NCBI RefSeq assembly: GCF_964199755.1 | Contig: NC_133912.1 | Coordinates: 190,570-254,569 of the forward strand | Origin: Larus michahellis | Taxonomy: Eukaryota | Length of the DNA: 64,000 bases | Direction: 5' to 3' | In this document: positions 16,700 through 50,525 of the stretch, one piece after another | Layout of the letters: each line of letters begins with the position of its first letter | Numbering within the stretch: position 1 is the first letter of the stretch | Program-made: the position numbers and the translations under genes | Notes under the pieces: generated by a model | The model's input: the letters and a program-made list of their open reading frames with translations, nothing else | Database searches by the model: none | Told to the model about the DNA's origin: nothing

Positions 16700-17620
16700 A
16701 CGCTCACAGGTCTATATTGGTCTTGTGCTTGGCACCCCTGAGCTGGACACTGTTCTCCAGCTGGGGTCTCACCACAGCAGCGTAGAGGAGGACAATCCCC
16801 TACCTACACCTGTTGGCCACGCTTCTTTTCATGCAGCCCAGGATGTGCTTGGCTTTCTGGTCCTGCACTTGGACCACAATAACCCCATGCATCGCTACAG
16901 CCTTGGGGCAGTGTGGCTGGAGAGCTGCCTGGCAGAAAAGGACCTGGGGGTTCTAATTGACAAGCAGCTGAAAGTGAGCCAGCAGTGTGCCCAGGTGGCC
17001 AAGAGGGCCAATGCCATCCTGGCTTGTATTAGAAATAGTGTGACCAGCAGAAGGAGGGAGGTGATTGTCCCCCTGTACTCAGCACTGGGGAGGCCACCCC
17101 TTGAGTATTGTGTCCAGTTCTGGGCACTTCAATATGAGAGAGATCTCGAGGTGCTGGAGCGAGTGCAGAGGAGGGCAACGAAGCTGGTGAAGGGCCTGGA
17201 GAATAAATCTGATGAGGAGCGATTGAAGGAGCTGGGACTGTTTAGTTTGAGGAAGAGGAGGCTGAAGGGAGACCTCATCACTCTCTACAACTACTTGAAA
17301 GGCCATTGTAGAGAGGTTGGTGCTGGTCTCTTCTCACAGGTCATTAGTGATAGAACAAGAGGGAATGGGTTCAAGCTGCAGCAGGGGAGGGTTAGGCTGG
17401 ACATTAGGAAAAAATTCTTCCCAGAAAGAGTGGTCAGACACTGGAATGGCCTGCCCAGGGAGGTGGTGGAGTCACCATCCCTGAATGTGTTTAAGACTCG
17501 TTTAGATGTGGTGTTAAGGGATATGGTGTAAGGGAGAACTTCGTAGAGTGGAGTTGATGCTCGGACTCGATCATCCCAAGGGTCTTTTCCAACCTAAATG
17601 ATTCTATGATTCTATGATTG
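16700..17620 (+). mobile_element. CR1 LINE 3' half
   Basis: ORF 16656..17531 reads ...[54 protein letters not shown]...[21 protein letters not shown]...[45 protein letters not shown]. The terminus at 17575-17620 is ggtcttttccaacctaaatgattctatgattctatgattg. Confidence 0.85.
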
Positions 17621-21799: not shown

Positions 21800-21958
21800 G
21801 AGAACCGCATGAAGGGCTGAGTCACCATCCCTGAATGTGTTTAAGACTCGTTTAGATGTGGTGTTAAGGGAGTAAGGGAGAACTTCGTAGAGTGGAGTTG
21901 ATGCTCGGACTCAATGATCCCAAGGGTCTTTTCCAACCTAAATGACTCTATGATTCTA
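21800..21958 (+). mobile_element. CR1 3' terminus (near-identical to 17470-17620)
   Basis: gtcaccatccctgaatgtgtttaagactcgtttagatgtggtgttaaggg...ggtcttttccaacctaaatgactctatgattctatg. It abuts the ERV LTR exactly at its last base. Confidence 0.8.
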
Positions 21959-22079
21959 TGGCCCAGGTGCTGTGTAGCTAGGGATTGTTTACTTATCCCA
22001 CGCTTTGCCGCCAGGGAGAGCGATGAGAAGTCCAGGGCTCGTTCCAGGTGCTGTGTCCGCACGTCCTTCGGCATCCACA
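21959..22079 (-). repeat. ERV 3' LTR (short, about 120 bp)
   Basis: tggcccaggtgctgtgtagctaggg.ttgtttacttatccca...ggcatccaca matches 26948-27068 at about 90% identity. The flanks diverge. Confidence 0.6.
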
Positions 22080-22360
22080 ATTCCCCCTTCTTCATTTACT
22101 ACAAAAACAGTGGCTAAGGTTTTATCTGTAAGACGCTGCGCACGCCGTAGCACACAGGGAATACAAAGCATAATGCACAAGAATATGCTTATACAAAAAA
22201 GCAAGAATTTTAGAGCTGATTGCAACCATCCAGTTAAGCCCCAACTGTTAAAAAGGTTATCCAGCCATCCCCAACTTCCCCCCATTCGTAATTTCTGCAC
22301 GTTTTGCTCTAACTGTTGTATACTTTTATGGATTGATTCAGAGTGGTCTGATAAATTCAT
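21989..22360 (-). CDS. ERV env TM subunit C-terminal part (membrane-spanning segment plus tail, reading into the LTR)
   Basis: ...SIQQLEQNVQKLRMGGSWGWLDNLFNSWGLTGWLQSALKFLLFCISIFLCIMLCIPCV... carries the W-rich pre-TM then the hydrophobic anchor, typical of retroviral TM. Confidence 0.6.
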   Translation of the reverse strand: MNLSDHSESIHKSIQQLEQNVQKLRMGGSWGWLDNLFNSWGLTGWLQSALKFLLFCISIFLCIMLCIPCVLRRAQRLTDKTLATVFVVNEEGGIVDAEGRADTAPGTSPGLLIALPGGKAWDK

Positions 22361-24393
22361 ACAGCACGTGCCATCAAAATCTTCACATCCATGGCCATGA
22401 GCTAATAACAGAAAATTGACGGCTGCTCTATTTTACAGAGTTGCATGGCGTACTGAATCTACATCTAATAAAAGGCCAGGAGGAGCTACTGAAGTAGCCT
22501 TACTTTGTTCCACAAGCCAACAACCTAGCTTTTTTTAAGAGCGTTAGCGCTTTTGCAGAAGCCACACCGGGAGCAGAGAAAGAAGAAATGGCAACCACAG
22601 GTGGCTGCCAAAAGTGTACCTGGTAATCAAGAGGGGTGACCTTTTGGAGATATGTTGCGTTTCGAGAGCATTTGGCAAAGTTAAAACACTTACGAGCATC
22701 CATCTGAATTTAGCCTAGAATACCAACCTCCTGTGGCTCTAAAGGCAGGGGAGAGAATAATTTATTTGCCCAATATAATCTACTGGGGCAATCTGTAGGT
22801 TAAGACTTTGTGATAACCAAGGGTCAAGGTCGTCCTTTTTGACAGGGACATGTATGTGGCTTGGATCCATTCCAGAAAGCTGCTGACAGCACAAACGACC
22901 CTGGGAAAACAATCGTGGTAACATTTCAGTCATCATAGTTACTGTTTTGGAAAAGGTACGTGGCAAAACTACCCACTCTAATGCAGTCGGGCTCTTTGCG
23001 AGTGCATCATCCCACTGTCCTATCAGGGCGTAAGGTTGAAATTCTTGTAGGAAGGTGTTCAACATGTCTTGCAGCAGTAGTAGACTGTATCTTACCTGCA
23101 ACGTGCTGTAATGCCTTCTGAGCTGTTGGGGTTAATGAACATAGAACTTATGGGAGGGGGGGCGGGGACAGAGACAGCGCTCCAGGGCGTCCCCTGTATC
23201 TTCAAAGTGCGCTCATTTCTCTCTCCCTCTCTCCGGCCCGAGACAGACCCCTTATATCCTGCACCGGATTGAGTGGAGAAGTACAGGCTAGAGTCGCTGC
23301 ACGTGTGGCCAGCGCATGCAGCGAGTCCCACCAGACTCGTGATCCGGCTTTGCTAACGGCGGCTGTCTGATACGTGACCACATTGTTGTAATCCCTTCTT
23401 GTTATCTTCTTCTGTGAAGGTCAGGTTCTCATGGATACACACGCAGTTTTTACAGCAACATATTCTACAACTCGTACCAGGGTACGATGCAAAGCGGCAT
23501 CTACAACTGATCGTATAATGCTTATTAAACACAGCAAACAGCGTACTAAACATAACAGACAAATTCCTTCCACACAGGCAAACGAGTACAATTTGCTTCA
23601 ACCAACCCCACCCCCAAGTCCATCCAAAAAAGATTGCACCCAGTGGTCTCCACAAGTTGCTGGTTGGGTCAGTGCCGTTCTTGCAACTGGGCATGGATGG
23701 ATTTGGAGTGGTCACTTAGATTCATACAACACAGTCCTTTAAAATCTTGACAACCATGTCTGTGAGCTGAAAGCAAAAAGTCAATAGCAGCTCTGTTTTG
23801 CAGCGTCGCATGTCGACTACTATCTACATCAGCAATAACTCAGAAATAGCTGTACCAGTAGCATTGCTAAACTTATCCTTGGCAGCAAGAGAGTCCTTGT
23901 TCTCAAGAGCACATGCGGACTCCCTGTTCTTCCTGGTACAGTTTTCTCACTGTGCTTTGATCTTCCACAACTGCGTCCATGCCTGCTCGTTGGGACTCCG
24001 TAGACCGAACCAGGATAGCAGACTCATTCAATCCTTTTGGCTTTGCTGTTGCCTGTAAGGGCGCACATACCGGGCTGGAACCCACCGAGGTCCCGTTCCT
24101 GTGGAGACACAAGCATAGCCTCTCCCCCACGTTATCAACTGCTATGGACCCTCCATAATTCCTCATTCTAAATTATGTACTAGCACTTGAGCTTTACCCT
24201 TGATATTGTGTTTGTCCACTCGCAAAGAAGAATAATGTCGGCTAATGGTTGACTCGGCACTGTCAGATAAATTCAAAAAATTGAGTACATACAATGCCTT
24301 AGCCAAGCCTTCCTGTGGTGAGAGAGACTCAACTTCCCCTTTTTGGCGCAACAACATGCCTTTTAATGAACTATGCGATCGTTCTACAATGCC

Positions 24394-25308
24394 TCAGCCG
24401 GTAGGGGAGTGCGGAATGCCTGTAAGGTGCTTGACCCCCCAATCTTGAAAGAATTTTTGAAGGCGGAGGGAGATGTAAGCTGGGCCATTAGCCGTCTTAA
24501 CCATATGGGTGACACCTAGAGCAAAAGCTAGAGTAAAACGTTTGATAACAACATGAGCTTTTTCACCAGTAGGACAAGTGGCATGTATGGCTCCGGAGAA
24601 GGTATCTATAGAAACATGGATGTATTTAAGGCGTCCAAATTCGGAAAAGTGAGTTACATCAGTTTGCCACAGCTCAAGAGCAGTAAGGCCTCGCGGGTTA
24701 ATGCCAAAGGGTGATGAACTTGTGTATAACCGCTGGCAATCTGGACAGGCAGCAATGACATTTCTTGCCTGCCAGGGCATCAAGGAAAAGGTTTTTTGCA
24801 ATGCTTTTGCATTCTGATGGAAAAATGCATGACAGATTCGGGCTTGCTCTATTACCTGGGGCACTACTTGAGCTGTGAGAGTTAATGCATCAGCTCGTCC
24901 ATTGCCTTCCACTAGGGGCCCTGGAAGGGCGGTGTGAGCTCTGATGTGCATGATCAAATAAGGATGCTGTCTATTGTTCAGCAAATGCAAAAGCGTTGAC
25001 AGTAGAGTAAAAAGTAAGGGGTTGGAGACTTCCCTTAAACAAGCATTTTCTATGCGGGGTACAAGTCCCGCAACAGAGGCAGAATCAGTTATTATAGTGA
25101 CAGGAGCGTCCCATTTCTGGAACACTCGTACAGCAGCGGCGAGCTCTACGATTTGTGGGGACCCACTAGTTCGGCGTACATCAGAATCCCACAATTTACT
25201 CTGCGGGTCTTGCCTTCCTACGACTGAGCGGCTGGTTCGTCCAGAACCATCAGTAAAGACAGTCAAAGCTTGTAAAGGTACATGACTCACTTTCGGGGCT
25301 ACATACAA
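24394..25308 (-). CDS. ERV pol: RNase H plus integrase (zinc-finger and catalytic core)
   Basis: The RNase H reads FTDGSGRTS...IMHIRAHTALPGPLVEGNGRADALT. The IN HHCC finger is HAFFHQNAKAL...AACPDCQ. The IN core has D residues at WQTDVTHF and HVSIDTFSG. Confidence 0.8.
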   Translation of the reverse strand: MYVAPKVSHVPLQALTVFTDGSGRTSRSVVGRQDPQSKLWDSDVRRTSGSPQIVELAAAVRVFQKWDAPVTIITDSASVAGLVPRIENACLREVSNPLLFTLLSTLLHLLNNRQHPYLIMHIRAHTALPGPLVEGNGRADALTLTAQVVPQVIEQARICHAFFHQNAKALQKTFSLMPWQARNVIAACPDCQRLYTSSSPFGINPRGLTALELWQTDVTHFSEFGRLKYIHVSIDTFSGAIHATCPTGEKAHVVIKRFTLAFALGVTHMVKTANGPAYISLRLQKFFQDWGVKHLTGIPHSPTG

Positions 25309-25784
25309 AATAAAATCTTTTCATAAGAGTCTATGGCTAGGGCTATGAATATCTGTTTGTCCCGGCTGGTCAATAGTCGCTGTTTGAAACATCACTGAGG
25401 TTTGTAGAAGCCATTGCAGCACTTGCGTGGCTATTGGTAAGATAATACGGGAAAAGTCCTGCCCAGCTAATAGCATAAGCCGTTGTCTTCCTTTTGTGAT
25501 CAACATAGCAAAGCATTCTGGGCGAGTTACCACTGTCTTATACAGCTGGTGAGAAAGGAAGACCCATTCAATAACATTGTGTATATACAAACTTCTTCAC
25601 TTGACGGAGTGTCAGCCCCAGTCGTGTACGAGAACAGGACCACACCGGGCAGAACACCTGCTCCAGGGGAGTCACCTAACGACACTGCACACAACAAAAA
25701 CCAAACAGTAGCACAGATGATGATCAGCAGGTAGAAGCTGGCGCCCATGCACACTCACACAGCAGACATACAAAAACAACACTT

Positions 25785-26571
25785 CTATCTCAGGGAGATG
25801 ACTGGGGAGGGGAGGGGGCCAGGCGGGTGGTGGCAGGAGCGAAACGGCTCCGGCTCCGTCCTTCTCTGCTGACATTCTGACAATACACCGCAATACCCCG
25901 ATTCCGGCTGCGCACGTATAAGCGGTTGATAAGGGGGAACAGATGCGGTACCTGGCGCAAATGGAGAAGGGCTAAGAACGGAGGAGCGCGATAACAACTT
26001 TCGTCGCTGTTGCTGTAAAATGTCCTCCGCAATAGGAGCAGATGCAGGAATAGCTTTAATTGGGGTTAAAGGTGGATAGAAATCAGGTTCAGTCTCTGGA
26101 TTTATTGGACCAGGATCAAAGGGGTCCCCAGGATCATCCTCAGGGCTATTACAGAATAGGGTAGAGTGAACTTGAGTGCCTCCTTTCCCTTCGCCTTGTT
26201 CTGATCTCGGCAAGACTGGGCGACAATTGTCCGCTTGAAAATTAGGAGTTGCGGCGGTTGCCCGAAACGGAGCTTGCAGCTTATCTGATATCCTCCCGTT
26301 TCCGTAACATCTCTAGAATTTGCCGCCAAGGGGTTAATAATTCAGCAGCAACCTTGTCCGCCTTAGTGGCTCTGGCCCAAAGTTTAACCCCTCCGGCGTC
26401 CCACGTTTTTATACTAAAAATAGTGATTGCATCGACACCATCGCAATTAACGGACACCCATTTCAGTATCTTTTTTAAGGTCTGGAGGCTCGTATATACA
26501 TGATGTTTCCGCAAGAGTCCCTCCATTAGTCCTAGTACTGACTTTTCTTCCCAAGATATGTTACTCCCCAT
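25785..26571 (-). CDS. ERV gag remnants (MA N-terminus MGSNISWEEK... and a Pro-rich p10/late-domain-like fragment)
   Basis: 26281..26571 (-) starts MGSNIS (an ATG confirmed in the sequence; Gly2 suits myristoylation). 25785..26213 (-) is proline-rich with ...PPYQPL... The frames are broken, so it is non-functional. Confidence 0.45.
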
Positions 26572-26947
26572 AGCTCCCCACAGCTCACCTCTCTTGAAGA
26601 GATGCCTGAAGCCGGCTCCTGCTTCCTTTCAGCAGCACTTAAGTTCTGTGGGGCTTGACACCCGTCAAACCTCGTTAATCGCTCCGTCTCACACGGGGCA
26701 CCATTGGTGGCAATTAGGCACGGACTCCATTTGGTGCACAAACGAAAACGCTTTATTTTAGGCAGCAGCCTCTTTAAATACCCTCTGCTACAGAGCTAGC
26801 AATTTCCCACTGCTACCTCCTTATCATGAGATTACACAGCACATACCACACATATCACAGCCCATACATGCTGTAAACCAAGACAAGCTATTCATCTTTA
26901 GCAACCCGGCCGGCCTTCAGCGCTCTCTCCTTTTCTCCTTCGTCTCG

Positions 26948-27068
26948 TGGCCCAGGTGCTGTGTAGCTAGGGCTTGTTTACTTATCCCAGGGTTTGCCGC
27001 CAGGGAGAGCGAGGAGAACTCCAGGGCTCCTTCCGGGTGCTGTGTCCGCAGCTCCTTCGGCATCCACA
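26948..27068 (-). repeat. ERV 5' LTR (short)
   Basis: Direct repeat of 21959-22079. Confidence 0.6.
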
Positions 27069-27399
27069 GAACGGGGCTGGCTGCAGTGCTGCGCCTGCAA
27101 GTGAGCGCCTCCCACCCACAGGAACACCAGGAGCGACACAACACACTCCCTTTTACGTGGCACGGTGATTTATGATCAAAGCGCAACAAATTGCTGCTCC
27201 TGAGCACTGCAGCACAGTTTGCACGTGCAAACCTAGAGGTGCCCAGGCAGTTCATCGTGCTGGCCCCGTTCTTCTTCCAGATGCACCAGGAAGGGACGCC
27301 TCAGCCCTAACAAGAGGCAGCAGCCACCAGCTGTGCATTAACTGTGGGCAACATTCAGAGAGCCACCCCCACTCTTGTAGAAGCCGACACACGCACCGC

Positions 27400-28200
27400 G
27401 GGCATCTTACGGACGCGCATTTAGCCCAGAGTGCTTCCAGGGTGTTCGGGGACAGCAGTTCAGTGTTCAGCTACAGCAGAGCAGAGCGGGAAGAAAAGCA
27501 GAGCCAAGTACCAGCTGCTCATTCCCACGAAGGCCCCCGCCGCTCTCAGCGCGCACGGAGCGGCCACGGAGCACCCGGCCCCGACCGCCGCCAGCCACGC
27601 AGGGACGGAGCTCCGCTCCTCGCCCGCCCGCTCTGCGCCGGCCTCCCCGCCCCGAGGCGAAGGAGCCCGGGCAGGCAGGAGGGCGACGCGACAGCCGGTG
27701 GCACGGCGGCAGCGGCTCTCCCGCACCCCAGGGCGCCCCGCCCCGCCCCGCAGCCGGCCCGGCCCCTCCGGCACTCACCTTCTCCCACCAGCCACGGCCT
27801 ACGGGCCCCTCACACCGCGGCCCCTCCGCGCGCTCGGCTTCCTCCTACGGCGGCGCGCGAGGGACAAGCGCGGGAGCGGCGGCGGCGCGCGCCTGCGCGG
27901 GAGGGTGCGGGCCGCGCGCCGCCCTGAGGCGAGTCCTGCCGCCGGGGCGCGGAGGGAGAGAGCGGGGTGAGGGGCGGCCCTGGCGGGCTGTGCGGGAAGA
28001 AACCCAGAGCCAGGGGGCTCCGCAGCGGCTCCGTGCCCCCGCGGCCCCGATCCGGGGTGCCCGCAGCCGCCGCCATCCGTTTGTTTGTCGATATTTCTCC
28101 CGCCGGTCCCTCCCCTGCCCGGCTGCAGGGATGCTGGTGGGGGCCCCGTCGCCCGGCAGTGCCTCCGTGCTGCTCCTTCCTTCTCTGCGCGTTTATGTAC
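27400..28200. promoter_or_regulatory. Very GC-rich CpG island (many Sp1-type ccccgcccc boxes) with no assignable transcript
   Basis: Runs such as ccccgccccgccccgcagccggcccggcccc show dense CpG. It lies just beyond the polyA signal of the minus-strand coiled-coil gene and next to the ERV LTR. Its long ORFs are composition artefacts. Confidence 0.55.
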
Positions 28201-28589
28201 GTTAGATGCATTTATATATGATAGCTACATATTAAAAAAAAATAAAAATGGGGAGAAAAGGCTGGCTAGAAGCTCTCGTGGGCTGATGCCCCCCCCATCA
28301 GCGTGTGTGTCCCCCCATAAAAATAGGAATAAAACGTAGAAAATGGCTGCAGTGCGTTTCTAGGGGAGTCCCCACTCCCAAGGCCCTGGCCCAGAGCCCC
28401 CCAATTCCTCCCCGCCCCCCTCCCCGTGTCTATTACAAAAGTGGAAAGGTGAATACCAGAGATTTTGCAATAAGCGAGGTGCTAGATGTTAGATCTACAT
28501 TTTGGAACAGATACCCTGTTTCTGCAGGATCTGGTGTTAGGACTGGCAGAATATAGAAAAAACCCAACAAAAAATAGGGTCAAAGGCTT

Positions 28590-32581: not shown

Positions 32582-32661
32582 CTTCTCCTTCACTTCCTGC
32601 AGCTCGCTGGCGAGGCTCTGCAGGGAGGACACCTGACCCCGGAGGGCGATGCTGTTGTCAT
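32582..32661 (-). CDS. Coiled-coil gene exon (x)DNSIALRGQVSSLQSLASELQEVKEK
   Basis: The acceptor is catgtccctctag|ATGACAAC and the donor is GAGAAG|GTGAGC. Confidence 0.7.
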
Positions 32662-32879
32662 CTAGAGGGACATGGTCCAAGGAGACATGCTGTCAGTGAG
32701 GGGGTCTCGCCCTTGGGGCCAGCCTCTGAGCACGATGAGCCCCCAGCCCAGGGTGTTCCCACGCCAAACACCCCCCCACCAGCCCCCTCAGGGTTCCTAC
32801 CTCCCTCCGGGGAGAGCAGGTGCGTCTGCTCACGCACGGCGTGGTCTGACTTGGTGGCTTCCAGGTGGGTGTGGAATAA

Positions 32880-33900
32880 TTACTAAATTGGCCAAGAATA
32901 CAAAAATACAGCATTGTTCACACATTAAGGAAAGTCATAAAATCAAGAGGCTTCTGAGGTAGAATACAGCCGCAGCTAGCACACGAAGAATGCAACATCT
33001 GTGATTCCCTGTACAAGGTTGTTTGCGAAACTACATGAGGGATGGAACGGAACACGCTTGTTCCGTGGCCTTCCCTTGTGACGAATAGCAGATATGGGGA
33101 CGAGATGGTACTACGGAACTGATAAGCGGCCTACACGCTACCCGAGCCAACATTTCGTCAAATGTTGATGAAATGCTGTCCTTTTGTGCGAACTTTGCTC
33201 ACCACAATGTACCAAAACACACCTCCATCCCGGAGGCTATCCGCCCCCGAGGTGTGAACACTCCTCCTTGAATACATTAATCATAATAAAAGTACGTATG
33301 ACTAAAGTCACTCAAACTCCACTTTGAAGATAAAAAAATAATATAAAAATAGCCCAAGAGAGAGGGGATGTCAGGGAAGACACCATCGCAAAGAATTCCA
33401 CCGCCGATTTCCGGGATCAGTCGACGGGCTGAGCCTCTCTTCCCCCCCATAGGGACGCCTTTGGGTAAGACTTCGATTACACCGAGCGCTTTCTCGGGGA
33501 CTTAGAAATTTCTCTAGAGAATCTCTACCCTACATTTATAGCCAGGCTGTATCGTTTATAATTTTGTCGTGCGTTTGTATACTTAGCAATATCTTTATTT
33601 GCACGTGCTTTGCAGACAGTGTATTTATCACCGGCAATCCTAAAGAACCTGTATATCTGTTGTTTAAATAAACTGCACTGTTTAAGTAGCTAGCCGTTTC
33701 GCTTTCTCACTGAACGCGACCAAAACTTGAGAGAGGCCGTGCTAGTTCAGGAGCACGACTAGACTGAAGGTGCAGTCCACTATTAGTGTATCCAAATCGT
33801 AATAGTTTAATACATATTAAACGCGATTGGACTGATAGTGCTGAATTGGGCATCACTCAGAATTTAAACTTAGCCGCACCTAGCCTCCCACCTCGGTGAG
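32880..33900. other. About 1 kb compositional outlier inside an intron: CpG observed/expected about 1, GC about 45%, no ORF of at least 60 aa in any frame, and no repeat or TE signature
   Basis: I counted 16 CpG in 33001-33300 against about 15 expected. AT-neutral CR1 or intergenic stretches elsewhere in the window give about 2 per 300 bp. The segment is rich in cg-containing words (acgcgattgg, cagtcgacgggc, gcgaccaaaac, ccgccgatttccggg). Confidence 0.5.
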
Positions 33901-34905
33901 GAGTGTTAGAACGCAAGGGGGTTTATCTTCTGCCAAAACCACTTGGCCCCGTTTCACGCAACAGTGGGCCACCTGCTTCTTCGGGTGGCCAAGCTGCCCA
34001 GACTGGCCGAGAGCCTCCACCATCTCCATGCCATGGCCAGAGGCACTGCTGAAGGCTGAGGACCCCCAGGGCATTGCTGGCTCTTGCAAATGGGACATGC
34101 CGGGAGATCCTGGCTGCACCCCTGGGGTGGCTGTCCCGGTGCCAGGGGACTCTGGCTTCTCTCCTGGGCTGGTGGTCTTGATGCCTGGGAATGCTGGCTG
34201 CATGCCCGGAGTGGTGATTTGGGTGCTGGAGGGTTCTGCCTGCATCACTGGGGTAGTGCTCTGACCAACAGGGGACCCTGGCTGCTTTCCTGGGCTGGTG
34301 GTCTTGATGCGAGGGAATGCTGGCTGCGTGCCCGGGGTGGTGATTTGGGTGCTGGAGGGTCCTGGCTGCATCCCTGGGGTGGTGCTCGGAGTGCCAGGGG
34401 ACCCTGGCTGCTTTCCTGGGCTGGTGGTCTTGATGCCAGGGAATGCTGGCTGCATGCCCGGGGTGGTGATTTGGGTGCCGGGGTATCCTGGCTCCATCCC
34501 CTGTGTGGTGCTCTGAGCGCCAGGGGACCCTGGCTGCATGCTGGGGGTTGTGGCGCTGGCATCAGAAATGCTCTTCCCATCTGAAGGAGCGCCTGCCGCC
34601 TTCTCAGGGCTCACTGGTGCTCTGTGTGTCCCTGCTTGCGTCTCCTCGGAGCCAGGCTGTGTCCCTGGAGCCCCCTTGCTTGTGCTGGGCTCAGGTTGTG
34701 CCCCTGGTTCCTCCGTCCCCGGCACGGAGCTTGCCCCGTGCTGGGTGTCCACGGCCGCCTGGGGGGACTCTGTGGGGGAAGAAAGGCTCCCACTGCCCTC
34801 CTGGGAAGAGGAGGCCAAGGGGAGCAGGGTTACAGGCAGCCATGCAGCGGCAAGGACAGAGCCCAGGCCCCCCCGCCATGTCCCCACTGCCTGTCTCCAA
34901 GGCAC
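33900..34905 (-). CDS. Coiled-coil gene: giant Pro/Thr/Gln/Gly-rich exon built from about 3.3 tandem 126-bp (42 aa) coding repeats (TTPGMQPAFPGIKTTSPGKQPGSPGTPSTTPGMQPGPSSTQI)
   Basis: A 341-aa stop-free minus frame covers 33880-34905. The nucleotide repeat at 34075-34530 has period 126 and stays in frame. The exact splice boundaries are not determined. Confidence 0.45.
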
Positions 34906-37730: not shown

Positions 37731-38159
37731 TTAGAACAGTCTCTTGGGCTGTTTGATTGCAGCGCATGTCTCACATTCATGGATGACCTGTGCAATAGTG
37801 TCCATGGTCAAGGCCACCCCTCGGTCACGAGCCCATCTATATGTCGCATCTCTTCCTTCATGGCCTGAGGTGTCATGGGCCCACCGAGCTATGAAGAGTT
37901 CACCCCTATGTTGCCAGTCCAGATCCAGCTGAGCCACTTCAATCCTAGCAGCCCGATCCACCTGCTGCTTGTTCTGATGTTCCTCCGTGGCCCGATTGTT
38001 TGGTACATGGGCATCTACGTGGCGTACTTTCACAACCAGATTCTCTATCCAGGCGGCAATATCTTGCCATAGGTCAGCAGCCCAGATGGGTTTGCCTCTG
38101 TGCTGCCAGTTGCCCTGCTTCTGCTGCTGTAGCCACCCCCACAGAGCATTTGCCACCAT
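37731..38159 (-). mobile_element. Solitary ERV pol fragment (RNase H C-terminus into the integrase HHCC finger), a different family from the 21959-27068 provirus
   Basis: ...RATEEHQNKQQVDRAARI...WAHDTSGHEGRDATYRWARDRG...IAQVIHECETCAAIKQP. It is truncated by the CR1 insertion at 38175. Confidence 0.6.
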
Positions 38160-38174
38160 CCATGAGTCAGCCTG

Positions 38175-39089
38175 GTGGCAGAGCTGCGAGAGGAAGTCGA
38201 CAGGTTAAGGAGCATTAGGGAGGCTGAAGAAGACACAGACTGGTGGAGCCAGGCTCTGCCCTCCTTGAAACAGGAGCAGGAGCACCTATCAGATAGTAAC
38301 CGGGATCCAGGGGCCCCTGTATCCTGCCCCTGCCAGGCAGAAGGTAGAAGCCTAAATGCAAAGAGTGAATGGAGACAAATTCATGGTCGGGGCAGCAGGC
38401 GAACTCCCTCCTTGCCCACCTTGTCCCCCACCCCGGTACCTCTGAACAACAGATATGAGGTTCTGGTTGAGGAAGGCCAGTCAAATGAGGATGTGGATGA
38501 TGGGCAAACCACACCAGAGATGTCTCCACAGTCAGAATGGTGTACCGCCCTTATCTCAACCACAACCACAAGGAAGAAAAGAAGGGTTATAGTCGTTGGT
38601 GACTCCTTCCTGAGGAGAACAGAGGGTCCAATATGCCGGGTAGACCCTCCTCATAGAGAAGTCTGCTGTCTTCCTGGAGCCCGGGTGAAGGACATCACCA
38701 GGAAACTTCCTCGCTTGATACAGTCCTCAGGCTATTCCCCATTACTGATCTTCCTTGTAGGTGGAGAGGAAGCTGCAACTCATAGACCAAGAGCAATCAA
38801 AGGGGACTTCAGGGCCTTGGGAAGGTTGGTGAGGGAATCTGGGACACCGGTTATTTTTTCCTCACTCCTTCCAGTTGCAGGCAGTGACATTGGAAGAAAC
38901 AGACGGATCCAGTCTATTAATACATGGCTCTGTGGCTGGTGTCACCGCCACAATTTCTTTTTTGTTGACAATGGGATGGCCTACACGGCACTGGGCTTTC
39001 TGGCATCACCTGGGAGACACCTTTCTCAAAGGGGGAAGAGGGTCTTTGCTCAAGAGATTGTCGGTCTGATCAACAGGGCTTTAAACTAG
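38175..39089 (+). CDS. CR1 ORF1 (coiled-coil plus GDSL/SGNH esterase-like domain)
   Basis: It is a 304-aa intact frame. VIVVGDSFLRR and the downstream GGEE/DNG blocks are characteristic of CR1-clade ORF1 esterase. Confidence 0.7.
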   Translation: MAELREEVDRLRSIREAEEDTDWWSQALPSLKQEQEHLSDSNRDPGAPVSCPCQAEGRSLNAKSEWRQIHGRGSRRTPSLPTLSPTPVPLNNRYEVLVEEGQSNEDVDDGQTTPEMSPQSEWCTALISTTTTRKKRRVIVVGDSFLRRTEGPICRVDPPHREVCCLPGARVKDITRKLPRLIQSSGYSPLLIFLVGGEEAATHRPRAIKGDFRALGRLVRESGTPVIFSSLLPVAGSDIGRNRRIQSINTWLCGWCHRHNFFFVDNGMAYTALGFLASPGRHLSQRGKRVFAQEIVGLINRALN

Positions 39090-39486
39090 ATGTGAAGGGG
39101 GAGGGGGATGGTAATATCAGGCTTGTCTGTGACAAGCTGTGGGATAACACGTCAGGGTTAGAGGGACAGGGCGGTAGGAAGGGCCTTTGACCTGTTGCCC
39201 GGAGGCATGCTGGGGACACTGCATCATAGTCAAAGTCTTACAGAGACGAGCCAGGGGCTTCTGAGTTTGTTGGAGTCAACAGGGAAACAGCCGTGAAACA
39301 GCTCAAGGTGATCTCCTCTAAGAAGGTAACACAGGCAACAGCCCAGCTGAAGTGCCTCTTCACAAACGCACACAACATGGGTAACAAACAGGAGGAGCTG
39401 GAAACTACCATGCCGCTGGAAAGCTATGACCATTAGGTCATTAGGCCGTTATTGAAACCTAGTGGGACAAATCCTATGACTGGAGT

Positions 39487-42117
39487 GTGGCTATCAATGG
39501 CTACAAGCTGTTTGGAAGGGACAGGGGAGGAAGGAGGGGCAGAGGTGTTGCCCTCTCTCTTACAGAATGGATAGAGTGTGAAGAGATGTCCCTAAAGAAC
39601 AGCCAAGAGGAAGTCAAAAGCTTATGGGTAGGAATTAGAGACCGAGGCAACAAGGGGAACCTGGTGGTTGGTGTCTACTACAGGCTGCCTGATCAAGGGG
39701 AACTTGCTGATGAAGCCTTCTTCCTCCAGCTACAGGAGGCATTGCGCTCGAAGGCTCTCGTCCTACTGGGGGATTTCAGCCACCCCGGCATCTGCTGGAA
39801 AAGGAACATGGTGAGCTGTAGACAATCCAGGAGGTTCCTGGAGTGCCTCGACGATAACTTCCTAAGACAGGCAATAGACAGCTCTGCCCGAGGGGATGCC
39901 ATACCGGACCTGACAGTCACCAATGCGAGTGAGCTCATTGGGGATGTCAAGATTGGAGGCAGGCTGGTGAGCAGTGACCACGCACTGGTGGAGTTCACAG
40001 TCCTAAGGGATACGTGTCAGACAAGGAGCGTAGTCAGGACCTTGAATTTTAGGAAAGCAAACCTCCGGATCGTCATGGAGTTAGTCAATAGGACCCCCTG
40101 GGAAACGGTTCTCACGGACAAGGGGGCAGAAGAGAGCTGGCAGATCTTCAAGGACACTTTCCATAGAGCACAAGGGCTCTCGATGCCCAGGTGTAAGAAA
40201 TCAAGCAAGAAAGGGAAGAGACCAGCATGGCTGAGTTGGGACCTGCTGGTCAAATTAAAAGGCAAGAAGGAAGTGCAGATGCAGTTCAAGCAGGATCAGG
40301 TGTCCTGGGAAGAGTATAGGGATGCTGCCCGGTTACATAGGGTTGAGGTCAGGAAGGCCAAGGCGTGGCCGGAGCTGAACTTGGCAAGGGATGCTAAGAA
40401 TAACAAGAAGGGCTTCTACAGGTCAGTCAACCAGAAAAGGAAGGTTAAAGAAAGCGTGCCCTCCCTGATGACTGAGAATGGCAAACTGGTAACAAGAGAT
40501 GAGGAGAAGGCTGAGGTTCTGAACAATTTTTTTGCCTCAGTCTTCACTGCCAGCCTCTCTCCTCACACCTCCCAAGTGAAAGGACTTCAAGATGGGGAGT
40601 TGGGGTCAAAGTCCCTCCCACTGTAAGTGAAGACAAAGTTTGTGATCACCTGAGGAACGTGAACGTACACAAGTCCATGGGGCCTGATGCACCCCAGAGT
40701 CCTGAGGGAATTGGCTGATGAAGTTGCCGAGACACTGTCCATGATATTGGAAAAGTCATGGCAGTCAGGTGAAGTCCCTGGTGACTGGCAGAAGGGAAAC
40801 ATTACACCCATTTTTAAAAAGGGTAGAAAGGAGGACCCCGGAACTACCGCCCTGTCATCCTCACCTCTGTGCCTGGGCACATCACAGCACAGACACTCCT
40901 AGAATCTATGCTAAGGCACATGGAGGACAGGGAGGTGATTCGAGACAGCCAGCATGGCTTCACCAGGGGCAAGTCCTGCCTGACCAACCTGGTGGCTTTC
41001 TCCAATGGAGTGACTGCATCAGTGGACAAGGGAAGAGCAACGGATATCCTTTGTCTGGACTTCTGCAAGGCCTTTGACACTGTCCTGCATGACATCCTGG
41101 TCTCCAAGCTGATAAAACATGGGTTTGATGGACTGACAATTCAGTGGATGAAGAACTGGCTTCACGGCCGCACCCAAGGAGTGGCTGTCAATGGGTCCAT
41201 GTCCAAGTGGAGGCCAGTGACAAGTGGAGTCCCCCAAGGATCAGTACTGGGTCCGGTATTCTTTAACATCTTCGTCAGCAACATGGACAGTGGCGTAGAG
41301 TGCACCCTCAGCAAGTTTGCCAACGACACCAAGCTGTGTGGGGCGGCTGACAGGCTGGAGGGAAGGGATGCCATCCAGAGGGACCTTGACAGGCTGGAGA
41401 GGTGGCCAATACCAACCTCATGAAGTTCAACAAGACCAAGTGCAAGGTCCTCCATCTGGGTCGGGGCAATCCCAAGCACCGATAAAGGCTGGGCAGTGAC
41501 TGGCTTGAGAGCAGCCCTGAAGAAAAGGACTTGGGGGTGCTGGTAGATGAGAGGCTCAACATGAGCCGTCAGTGTGCACTAACAGCCCAGAAAGCCAATC
41601 ATCTCCTGGGCTGCATCAGGAGAAGCCTGGCCAGCAGGTCGAGGCAGGTGATTCTCCCCCTCTACTCCACTCTCGTGAGACCCCACCTGGAGCACTGCGT
41701 CCAGTTCTGGAGCCCCTACTACAAGAAAGATACGGACGTGCTGGAACGCGTCCAGCGAAGGGCCACGAGGATGATCAGAGGGCTGGAGCACCTCTCCTAT
41801 GAGGACAGAGTGAGTGAGTTGGGGTTGTTCAGTCTGGAGAAAAGAAGGCTCCGAGGAGACCTTCTAGTGGCCTACCGGTGTCTTAAGGGGGCCTACAAGA
41901 ATGCTGGTGAGGGACTTTTTAGGATGTCGGGTAACAGTAGGACTAGAGGGAATGGATGAAAGCTAGAGATGGGACTATTCAGACTGGACGTTAGGAAGTT
42001 CTTCACCCTGAGGGTGGTGAGACACTGGAACAGGTTACCCAGAGGGGTGGTGAAAGCCCCATCCCTGGAAGTTTTTAAGGCCAGGCTGGATGGGGCTCTG
42101 AGCAACCTAATCTAGTG
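39487..42117 (+). pseudogene. CR1 ORF2 (endonuclease plus reverse transcriptase), disrupted
   Basis: The reading frame changes at about 40626, 40880, 41423 and 41470 (a stop tga after ...LERWPIPTS, then taa at about 41472). Otherwise it has high similarity to the other CR1 RT copies in the window. Confidence 0.75.
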
Positions 42118-49900: not shown

Positions 49901-50525
49901 CTTTTCATTCCCTTTTCCACTCTTTTCCCCCTCTCAAGTTCTTCTCTTGGACCATCCTCATCCCCTCCAATACAAACAGACAAGTCCTTTTCACTGCTTC
50001 CTTTCTTTGTTCTTCCCTTGGTGTTTCTGAGATGGTGACAGTGGCACTTTCCACCTTTGACATGACTTGATTACACTAGGAACCCCTTTCCTTACCTCTG
50101 CTGTCCTACAGCTACTCAAGTTGGGAGAGGAACCAGGACTCAGGATGAGCCATAAATAATGAACCTTAAATACTGACGTGCTAGAGCTTCAGTGCACAGG
50201 GACCTTGAGACACCTGGGGACATGGCCAACAGAAACCTCCTCAAGTTTTCCAAGGAGAAGGGGCAAAGTGGGAGAGTACCAGGTGAGGAGTGAGTCTGAG
50301 GAGAGGGGCCTGGGCATTTTGAGGGATGCCATATGAGGCTCTGGTAAAGGCTCAGCACCATTAAGGCCAGCTGCATATGGGGTGGTGTTAGAAGGACCGT
50401 GGACACCCAGACAAGGGTAGGTATTGTCCCCCTCGACTCGGCACTGGTGTGGCCACATCTGCTCTCCTAGTATCCCAGAATGGTTTGGGTTTGAAGGGAC
50501 CTTTAAAGATCATCTAGTTTATTCC
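49901..50525. repeat. Segmental duplicate of 558-1190 (about 93% identity)
   Basis: 49931 ctctcaagttcttctcttggaccatcctcatcccctcc... matches 583 tctcaagttcttctcttggatcaccctcatctcctcc... 50420-50500 is identical to 1090-1180. Both copies retain the paired minus-strand ORFs (MWPHQCRVEGD... and M..VLLTPPHMQLALMVLSLYQ). Confidence 0.7.

Follow-up and report, generated by a model that had tools for sequence, protein, structure and literature searches.

Passages of one study describe solo-LTR formation as unusually frequent in birds, and the solo LTR as their commonest retroviral remnant (PMC11009239). In the curation of bird repeats, solo LTRs are recognised by TG...CA ends together with a target-site duplication, and a duplication of 4, 6 or 5 bp places the element in ERV1, ERV2/K or ERV3/L, respectively (PMC6523648). 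Avian ERV3/ERV-L solo LTRs curated in songbirds combine TG...CA ends, a 5-bp duplication, the absence of an ORF and a length of ~1 kb (PMC6523648). They differ in presence and absence among related species, and automatic tools often class them as 'unknown repeat'. As for base composition, Rous sarcoma virus shows a natural enrichment in CpG along its length (PMC12582503).

We analysed a window of 64,000 nucleotides from Larus michahellis, by which we mean the whole stretch of DNA, and found in it a segment that shares each of these structural properties, including its presence here and absence from two other birds. Our preferred reading, held with moderate confidence at most, is that this segment is the solo LTR left by a bird retrovirus or endogenous retrovirus that integrated recently, lying in a coding exon of QRICH2. 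Its coding-exon site, the complete lack of CpG decay and the failure to find any relative set it apart from a typical avian ERV solo LTR.

The segment was first noted for its composition. A sequence-only reading had described positions 32880-33900 as a block of ~45% GC with ~16 CpG per 300 bp and an observed/expected ratio (O/E) near 1. By direct count, the block contains 45 CpG (13.2 per 300 bp) at a GC of 0.443 and a CpG O/E of 0.90, which upholds the GC content and the ratio but lowers the density. The recounted ratio is not below 0.5, and the anomaly stands. CpG O/E is 0.32 in the whole window, and DNA of <50% GC outside the block has a median of 0.27 with ~4.4 CpG per 300 bp; the depletion claimed for the rest of the window is therefore real, although milder than the ~2 per 300 bp first given. 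Among all 1021-bp windows of the stretch, only a CpG island (27351-28371) reaches a CpG O/E as high as that of the block, while an older ERV at 22-27 kb (0.55-0.75) is second to the island and the block. The segment that scores highest against a host Markov model, 32875-33916, is the insert itself. Over its full length (32870-33963), the insert has a GC of 0.445, 48 CpG, a CpG O/E of 0.89 and a TpA O/E of 0.94, with base fractions of A 0.30, C 0.23, G 0.21 and T 0.26. As had been stated, the block contains no start-to-stop ORF of at least 60 aa (the longest has 57 aa) and no microsatellite apart from one 22-nt A/T tract. The longest stop-free run in the insert, 74 codons, is of chance-level length. 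No long repeat was found within the insert, and no second copy of the block within the 64-kb window.

The boundaries of the insert were defined by alignment to the uninterrupted orthologous site in two other birds. This gave a length of 1094 bp, the limits proposed from composition having started 10 bp late and ended 63 bp early. A contig of a related bird (L001; ~94%, 92-96% identical to the window) aligns by blastn to window positions 34285-33964 and 32869-32121, and the two alignments overlap by 5 bp in L001, where the pentamer CCCAC occurs once. The insert is absent from L001 and from killdeer (L002), in which the exon translates without a break across the site. The junction features are as follows.

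32865-32869, no strand assigned: left target-site duplication GTGGG (CCCAC on the gene strand), single copy in L001, where the flank alignments overlap
32870-32874, plus strand: 5' terminus TGTGG (TG end), read from the sequence
32870-33963, plus strand (orientation inferred): inserted segment, putative solo LTR, absent from the L001 and L002 site
33959-33963, plus strand: 3' terminus CAACA (CA end), read from the sequence
33964-33968, no strand assigned: right target-site duplication GTGGG, from the L001 comparison

Because mismatching bases adjoin the pentamer on both sides, the target-site duplication is exactly 5 bp; we estimate the chance of a 5-bp match at an arbitrary junction at ~0.2%. 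The insert ends in TGT...ACA and is inverted-complementary at four of its five terminal bases. The segment missing from the related bird and killdeer fits recent acquisition. Together with the 5-bp duplication and the TGT...ACA ends, this empty site agrees with the earlier suggestion of viral or very recently acquired DNA. Conversely, a simple chimera, as had been considered in the sequence-only reading, would not yield an exact duplication of a 5-bp host target.

The block had also been thought to be embedded in an intron. Instead, it breaks a coding exon of the sperm-tail gene QRICH2, which lies on the minus strand; the break falls between a His codon and a Leu codon. We checked the reading frame against a related-bird protein (P0001) and against P0002, which is glutamine-rich protein 2 by NCBI annotation.

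33964-34905, minus strand: upstream part of the split QRICH2 exon, with Pro/Gln-rich repeats, ending ...GQLGHPKKQVAH (tblastn with P0001, 92% identity)
33880-33882, minus strand: first in-frame stop (TAG) of the QRICH2 frame (...KKQVAH|CCVKRGQVVLAEDKPPCVLTLLTEVGG*), 27 codons into the insert; the ORF spans 33880-34905
32801-32869, minus strand: downstream part of the same exon, LEATKSDHAVREQTHLLSPEG, with the donor G|GTAGGA (tblastn with P0001, 96% identity)
32582-32661, minus strand: next QRICH2 exon

The splice phase can be followed in killdeer, where ...PEGDEESITIQGR corresponds to ...PEGDDNSIALRGQ in the window. According to tblastn with P0001, the remainder of QRICH2 is intact in the window, as expected for a recent insertion event. 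Intron gain was considered and rejected, as the ends on the gene strand are TGTTGC...CCACA and shifting the boundaries within the 5-bp ambiguity nowhere produces the GT-AG of a spliceosomal intron. An ORF left open by removing 32875-33914 is in the wrong frame; the true junction and frame follow from P0001. On this haplotype, QRICH2 would be truncated after the 27 codons encoded by the insert, with loss of all downstream coiled-coil exons. Given such a truncation, the insertion allele is probably of recent origin and still segregating, not fixed. In humans and mice, males that have lost QRICH2 function are infertile and have malformed sperm flagella (PMC6347614, PMC11006759). A literature search for a known LTR insertion in bird QRICH2 returned nothing specific.

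If the segment is a solo LTR, retroviral integrase would have linked a linear provirus, through its CA-3' ends, to the exon at a cut with a 5-bp stagger, and repair of the gaps would then have produced the second GTGGG. The internal gag-pol-env region, along with one LTR, would have been lost when the two LTRs recombined. The composition of ~45% GC, undepleted in CpG and TpA, would be that of avian retroviral DNA which has spent too little time in the methylated germline to lose its CpGs. The noncoding nature of the segment and its 1094 bp, within the length range of LTRs, are consistent with this origin, as is the relatively high CpG content of other retroviral DNA in the window, the older ERV at 22-27 kb. 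By the bird-repeat convention, the 5-bp duplication tentatively places the element in ERV3/ERV-L. Duplications of this length also arise with certain other retroviruses, so the rule is not exclusive. A solo LTR carries no pol, and the two pol fragments of the window (24394-25308 and 37731-38159) show no linkage to the insert. We also asked whether the insert might be an LTR belonging to the window's own ERV, but found no similarity between them.

Several observations argue against a solo LTR. The terminal inverted repeat measures just 3-5 nt, the k-mer statistics of the insert match those of independent bases, and an insertion with undecayed CpG in the coding exon of a fertility gene occupies a place where it is unlikely to be tolerated. 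No relative or second copy was found, which is weak evidence since the collections searched include no bird genome and no repeat library. In addition, TATA and AATAAA motifs occur at chance level, as seen among the internal features of the insert.

33047-33066, no strand assigned: perfect hairpin with an 8-bp stem and a 4-nt loop, ACGGAACA cgct TGTTCCGT
33148-33167, no strand assigned: perfect hairpin with an 8-bp stem and a 4-nt loop, CAACATTT cgtc AAATGTTG
33330-33368, plus strand: 22-nt A/T-only tract (2 x ATAAAAAAATA), 4 nt, then the purine run AAGAGAGAGGGGA (33356-33368)
33434-33448, plus strand: 15-nt C/T tract with a run of seven C
33555-33562, plus strand: TATA-like motif TTTATAAT, candidate end of U3 in plus orientation (motif scan; expected by chance)
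33667-33672, plus strand: AATAAA, with CA and a TGTTT stretch after it; candidate polyadenylation signal close to the boundary of R and U5 (motif scan)

The AATAAA hexamer at 33667, of which ~0.7 per strand are expected by chance, lies 112 nt 3' of the TATA-like motif. This order weakly favours the plus orientation, antisense to QRICH2. The minus strand likewise has a TATTTAA/AATAAA pair, and all these motifs are at chance frequency. The purine run and a TG at 33356-33370 raised the possibility of a miniature two-LTR element (TRIM) or truncated provirus, which was dismissed for lack of terminal direct repeats.

Among known LTRs, we compared the insert with those of the ALV/RSV type found in IMG/VR (L005-L007). 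Like the insert, they start with TGT and end with CA. They also have a TATA box followed by AATAAA, an order that the insert shows in motifs of chance frequency. One of these (L006, 332 nt) has a GC of 0.45, a CpG O/E of 0.85, a TpA O/E of 1.00 and a dinucleotide chi-square of 7.7. At 0.445, 0.89, 0.94 and 7.5, respectively, the insert is almost identical in composition. The two differ in length (332 vs 1094 nt), and nhmmer detected no similarity between the insert and this LTR type. Alpharetroviruses make 6-bp duplications, not 5-bp ones as at the insert. Proviruses of reticuloendotheliosis/spleen necrosis virus and of lentiviruses are flanked by a 5-bp host duplication and have LTRs of ~0.55-0.65 kb that end in TGT...ACA or TG...CA.

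The statistics of the insert bear on a different explanation, namely that it is not native or not biological: computer-generated, synthetic, or an artefact of editing or assembly processing, functionless and carrying a duplicated 5-bp target. Dinucleotide (p = 0.59) and trinucleotide (p = 0.30) counts fit independent bases, and palindromes, repeated k-mers and ORF lengths all fall in the mid-range of shuffle distributions. Natural controls of 1094 nt were rarely as random: none of 90 segments of E. coli, two of 90 from lactococcal phage, none from the bird host and none of 15 from avian retrovirus records, among which the lowest dinucleotide chi-square was 11.8, compared to 7.5 for the insert. 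An artificial origin would also be in line with the absence of a relative from every collection searched and with the disruption of an otherwise intact, conserved gene. However, the genuine ALV-type LTR described above has the same dinucleotide profile, and other properties of the insert depart from randomness. Its fold energy is 4 SD below that of dinucleotide shuffles (0/100), it contains two perfect 8-bp hairpins (P = 0.03), and its GC content is heterogeneous (p = 1.4e-4), most of the local heterogeneity being due to the 22-nt A/T-only tract and the C/T tract. These properties rule out plain random sequence. Moreover, we estimate that an arbitrary paste would acquire both a 5-bp duplication and TG...CA ends about once in 10^4-10^5, so the integration signature would need to have been simulated deliberately. 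Change-point analysis gave no round-number boundaries, which speaks against modular synthetic blocks, and restriction-site and palindromic sequences were not in excess, their counts being exactly as expected. Taken together, we regard a non-biological or non-native insert as unlikely, though it is the main reservation about our preferred reading.

The empty site and the exact 5-bp duplication would equally follow from another kind of target-duplicating insertion, such as a non-autonomous cut-and-paste DNA transposon or other DDE-mobilised element with a 5-bp duplication, or from filler or horizontally acquired DNA taken up during repair of a staggered break. The lack of an ORF and of detectable homology to an LTR family within the window is compatible with these origins, and Mu- and Tn7-type DDE elements, too, typically have TGT...ACA ends and 5-bp duplications. 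Still, the terminal inverted repeats of the insert do not exceed 3-5 nt, its two ends share no repeated transposase-binding motifs, and nothing similar was found in bacterial, viral or metagenomic collections. Tn7/Mu-type ends in particular were rejected, as there are no shared binding-site repeats and no relatives in GTDB genomes or plasmids. Capture during break repair usually leaves deletions or microhomology and not a clean duplication with TG...CA ends. We therefore consider such an insertion improbable, and less probable than an artificial one.

Searches for relatives of the insert were negative throughout. Blastn against 72,556 plasmids, 50,697 phage records and 5,426 E. coli genomes came back empty. 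None of 18 back-translated 8-aa patterns matched IMG/VR viral contigs, and six of these 18 had no match in GTDB (185,579 species genomes) or JGI metagenomes; exact 20-22-mers likewise had none in IMG/VR, GTDB genomes or JGI metagenomes. At the protein level, an 856-aa pseudo-protein made from the stop-free translations matched none of 5.8 billion proteins, and an exact look-up of ten ORFs, including junction-spanning ones, found nothing. Rfam 15 gave no match at E <= 1 over 3 kb of sequence and, for the insert alone at E <= 10, a single noise match to TUG1_3 (12.8 bits, E = 3.9). There are no tRNAs or rRNAs in the block.

These results leave little room for a bacterial, organellar, vector or phage contaminant joined by misassembly, although prokaryotic DNA, too, typically has a CpG O/E near 1 at such a GC content (44%). 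Neither blastn (plasmids, phages, E. coli) nor the pattern searches (GTDB, JGI metagenomes) found a match, and the segment has no gene-sized ORF, compared to ~90% coding sequence in prokaryotic DNA. It also lacks rRNA and tRNA, and its junctions, marked by a target duplication, are precise to the base on either side. A NUMT or other organellar DNA, for which a strong strand bias would be expected as well, was rejected on the absence of tRNAs, rRNA model matches and ORFs and on the base fractions given above. The bacterial or organellar origin proposed earlier thus finds no match in the phage, plasmid, E. coli, prokaryotic, metagenome and viral collections, and we consider contamination very unlikely.

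Lastly, the segment could be a resident functional element, either an unmethylated regulatory island or a structured ncRNA gene, kept rich in CpG by selection or by lack of methylation. Its CpG O/E near 0.9 resembles that of vertebrate CpG islands, including the one at 27.4-28.4 kb of the window. This true island has a GC of 0.69-0.80, whereas that of the insert, 0.445, lies under any CpG-island criterion (at least ~0.5-0.55, with O/E > 0.6). Folding the segment, as had been proposed, did reveal a signal: the plus strand folds 4 SD better than shuffles (z = -4.0), with local windows at z = -4.1, -3.5 and -3.4, the strongest of which (120 nt, 32990-33109, plus strand z = -4.1) contains the hairpin at 33047-33066. 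However, fold energies are alike on both strands (-318 and -319 kcal/mol), which indicates Watson-Crick hairpins instead of a strand-specific structure, and ordinary host control segments reach z = -3.6. With structure limited to three local hairpin regions and Rfam empty but for the noise match, we rejected a structured RNA. The segment is not conserved, since two other birds lack it at the orthologous site; it bears an insertion signature, and it destroys the reading frame of the coding exon in which it lies. The intronic regulatory element or ncRNA once suggested is hence contradicted by its exonic location, its absence from orthologues and the lack of an Rfam match, and a resident element is the least probable of the explanations considered here, with very little in its favour.

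Gene predictors would wrongly model the block as an intron; QRICH2 on this haplotype should be read as interrupted. The zygosity of the insertion and its frequency in the population deserve attention if it is real. As a kind of element, a solo LTR is ordinary, and this one stands out just for its landing site and apparent youth. An LTR without CpG decay suggests that retroviruses have recently been active in the lineage of this bird. A bolder version, which we think unlikely, is that the LTR belongs to a still or very recently active retrovirus lineage absent from current viral, metagenomic and protein collections, and that the insertion is a segregating loss-of-function allele of QRICH2 in the reference individual. 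If true, this would mean both an avian retrovirus missing from the catalogues and a natural knockout of a fertility gene.

Translation across the block and a protein database search identified the host gene, located on the minus strand, as QRICH2, encoding glutamine-rich protein 2: the match was killdeer QRICH2 (P0002, named by NCBI). The same search returned P0001, a 98%-identical ORF on a 2.3-kb bird contig (L001) from an ENA metagenome. P0001 is unbroken across the site (...GHPKKQVAH-LEATKSDHAVREQTHLL...), and killdeer DNA at the site is uninterrupted and translates straight through. L001 aligns at window positions 34285-33964 and 32869-32121, the two alignments overlapping by exactly 5 bases in L001. 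In the junction alignment, L001 reads ...GTGGCCCAC followed directly by CTGGAAGCC..., and the gene strand of the window reads ...GTGGCCCAC[TGTTGCG...TTCCACA]CCCAC CTGGAAGCC.... The empty site and the 5-base overlap therefore delimit the foreign segment as 32870-33963 (1094 bp). Since the bases immediately beyond the flanking pentamers differ, the target duplication is exactly 5 bp.

Features of the insert and its target site (window positions)
32865-32869 and 33964-33968: GTGGG target-site copies flanking the insert
32870-33963, + strand: insert, starting TGTGG and finishing CAACA (TGT...ACA)
33047-33066 and 33148-33167: perfect hairpins, 8-bp stem and 4-nt loop
33330-33351: A/T-only tract, 22 nt
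From 4 nt past the A/T tract: purine run AAGAGAGAGGGGA
33434-33448: C/T tract, 15 nt
33555, + strand: TATA-like TTTATAAT, 112 nt ahead of AATAAA
33667, + strand: AATAAA, then CA and TGTTT
33805-33822: hairpin, 7-bp stem

The sequence-only reading had placed the block in an intron. Instead, the insert splits a QRICH2 coding exon between His and Leu codons. The interrupted exon runs on to a donor (G|GTAGGA) at 32801/32800. Splicing to the following exon (32582-32661) keeps the phase and gives ...PEGDDNSIALRGQ..., matching killdeer ...PEGDEESITIQGR.... The contig L001, a metagenome scaffold (ENA sample ERZ28576277), is itself bird nuclear DNA from the QRICH2 locus and matches the window at 92-96% identity; it represents host carry-over within a public metagenome assembly and carries prokaryote-style gene calls.

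A recount over 32880-33900 gave 45 CpG (13.2 per 300 bp), a GC content of 0.443 and a CpG observed/expected ratio (O/E) of 0.90; the CpG anomaly first noted thus holds, at figures slightly below the original ones. CpG O/E is 0.32 over the entire window, 0.43 and 0.33 in the 5-kb flanks (GC 0.62-0.65), and at median 0.27 (about 4.4 CpG per 300 bp) in window DNA below 50% GC outside the block. Among all 1021-bp windows, the sole equal in CpG score was a true CpG island at 27351-28371 (GC 0.69, up to 0.80 at 27501-28000; O/E 0.92), which is probably a promoter. When the window was scored by likelihood against a host model of third order, 32875-33916 came out as its highest-ranking segment, and no block-like sequence was found elsewhere in the window. 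As previously described, the block contains no start-to-stop ORF of 60 aa or more and is essentially repeat-free, the 22-nt A/T tract being its only tandem repeat. Its longest stop-free run, 74 codons, equals the chance prediction.

The insert (A 0.30, C 0.23, G 0.21, T 0.26) was more random-like than every 1.1-kb natural segment sampled. All 16 dinucleotide O/E values lie within 0.88-1.12, with TpA at 0.94 versus 0.42-0.60 in the host, and the dinucleotides fit independence (chi-square 7.5, 9 df, p = 0.59). Host segments had a minimum chi-square of 25 and a median of 100, and values as low as the insert's occurred in 0/90 E. coli and 2/90 lactococcal phage segments. Trinucleotides fit a first-order model (chi-square 39.9, 36 df, p = 0.30), as closely as did 3% of E. 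coli and 14% of phage segments, while palindromes and repeated k-mers were at or slightly under shuffle expectation. For avian retroviruses, we took 1094-nt segments of IMG/VR records picked by an ALV-LTR 18-mer. These gave chi-square values of 11.8-19, and their CpG and TpA O/E rose to at most 0.93 and 1.0, respectively. A 332-nt ALV-type LTR came near the insert in both profile (GC 0.45, CpG O/E 0.85, TpA O/E 1.00) and chi-square (7.7, p = 0.57), and Rous sarcoma virus has been described as naturally CpG-enriched over its full length (PMC12582503). Considering these likenesses, the composition of the insert looks like that of avian retroviral LTR DNA.

The insert had no blastn match in phage, plasmid and E. 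coli collections, and its 20-22-mers were absent, as exact strings, from viral, metagenome and prokaryotic genome collections. None of 18 back-translated 8-residue patterns matched viral contigs, and the six of them that were run against genome and metagenome collections as well had no match there. An 856-aa pseudo-protein of its stop-free translations had no match among 5.8 billion proteins (E <= 10), exact look-up of ten ORFs, including junction-spanning ones, returned nothing, and nhmmer detected no similarity to any locus compared here, ALV-type LTRs included. As the collections hold no bulk bird genomes or repeat library, these results say little about an avian repeat family. With all collection searches negative, common contaminants were rejected as the source, and contamination is very improbable. 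The absence of any relative, like the random-like statistics, would fit a non-biological or simulated insertion, which we consider unlikely.

The + strand of the insert folded with z = -3.97 (0/100 shuffles as good) and the minus strand with z = -1.07. The fold energies are equal across strands (-318 and -319 kcal/mol), so it is the shuffle baseline, rather than any strand-specific pairing, that produces the asymmetry. Three regions carry the signal (32990-33109, 33150-33309 and 33790-33909), and host control segments ranged from +1.6 to -3.6. No Rfam families or tRNAs were found in the block. An RNA gene was rejected on the equal strand energies, host controls reaching -3.6, and the empty Rfam and tRNA searches; a resident regulatory element or ncRNA is scarcely credible. 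Plain random sequence was also rejected, on GC heterogeneity in 50-bp bins (p = 1.4e-4) and a + strand fold energy 4 SD under 100 dinucleotide shuffles.

We lean towards reading the insert as a solo LTR. It resembles the solo LTRs of bird curators' operational definition in its exact short target duplication, TG...CA ends, noncoding sequence, length near 1 kb and empty site in relatives; these curators assign 5-bp duplications to ERV3/ERV-L (PMC6523648). Conversion of proviruses to solo LTRs is unusually frequent in birds (PMC11009239). Integrase would have joined the CA-3' ends of the provirus to a staggered cut of 5 bp, repair would have duplicated GTGGG, and LTR-LTR recombination would then have deleted the viral interior. 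Neither terminal direct repeats nor long terminal inverted repeats were found within the insert. On the + strand, the TATA-like motif precedes AATAAA as expected for U3-R-U5, implying a U3 of ~0.7 kb, R of ~0.1 kb and U5 of ~0.27 kb from motifs at chance frequency. Because a TATTTAA/AATAAA pair, also at chance frequency, is present on the minus strand too, the + orientation is only weakly indicated. The full CpG complement means that the insert spent little time in the methylated germline. Another target-duplicating insertion, which would share the GTGGG copies, or captured DNA, is quite improbable.

Other retroelements lie in the window. An older minus-strand ERV (21959-27068), whose boundaries are direct repeats of 121 nt (21959-22079 and 26948-27068, 93% identical), contains a pol ORF (24394-25308; RNase H, integrase zinc-finger and integrase core domains) and an env-TM-like ORF (21989-22360). 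Its CpG O/E has decayed to 0.55-0.75, a level exceeded in the window by only the insert and the CpG island. Another retroviral pol fragment (37731-38159, minus strand; Integrase_H2C2 and RNase H), within 37731-40626, adjoins non-LTR retrotransposon ORFs at 38175-39089 (weak GDSL-esterase-like match) and 39487-40626 (endonuclease/RT-family match), taken to be CR1-type. Segments 17525-17616 and 21869-21960 are 96% alike, resemble CR1 3' ends and terminate in ATTCTATG repeats; the latter adjoins the ERV boundary repeat. Dispersed long repeats (families D4-D10, D14, D17, D19, D20) pair ~10.5-14.6 kb with ~41.2-45.9 kb and 562-1124 with 49903-50458. Lying ~31 and ~49 kb apart and 70-92% identical, they represent a segmental duplication or else copies of a single long interspersed element.

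In a minus-strand QRICH2 exon, 34097-34537 is a tandem array (42/126 nt) that encodes Pro/Gln-rich repeats of TTPGMQPAFPGIKTTSPGKQPGSPG type. L001 (P0001) has fewer of these units than the window, so the number of coding repeats differs between closely related species. Gene-strand read-through of the insert adds 27 codons before a TAG at 33880-33882, and those QRICH2 exons of the window that lie downstream are intact. The insertion thus truncates an otherwise intact QRICH2, which suggests a young, probably segregating allele. In humans and mice, loss of QRICH2 makes males infertile and the sperm flagellum defective (PMC6347614, PMC11006759). If real, the insert would be an addition to a very well-known class of element, and its interest would lie in its position in a QRICH2 coding exon and its apparent youth.
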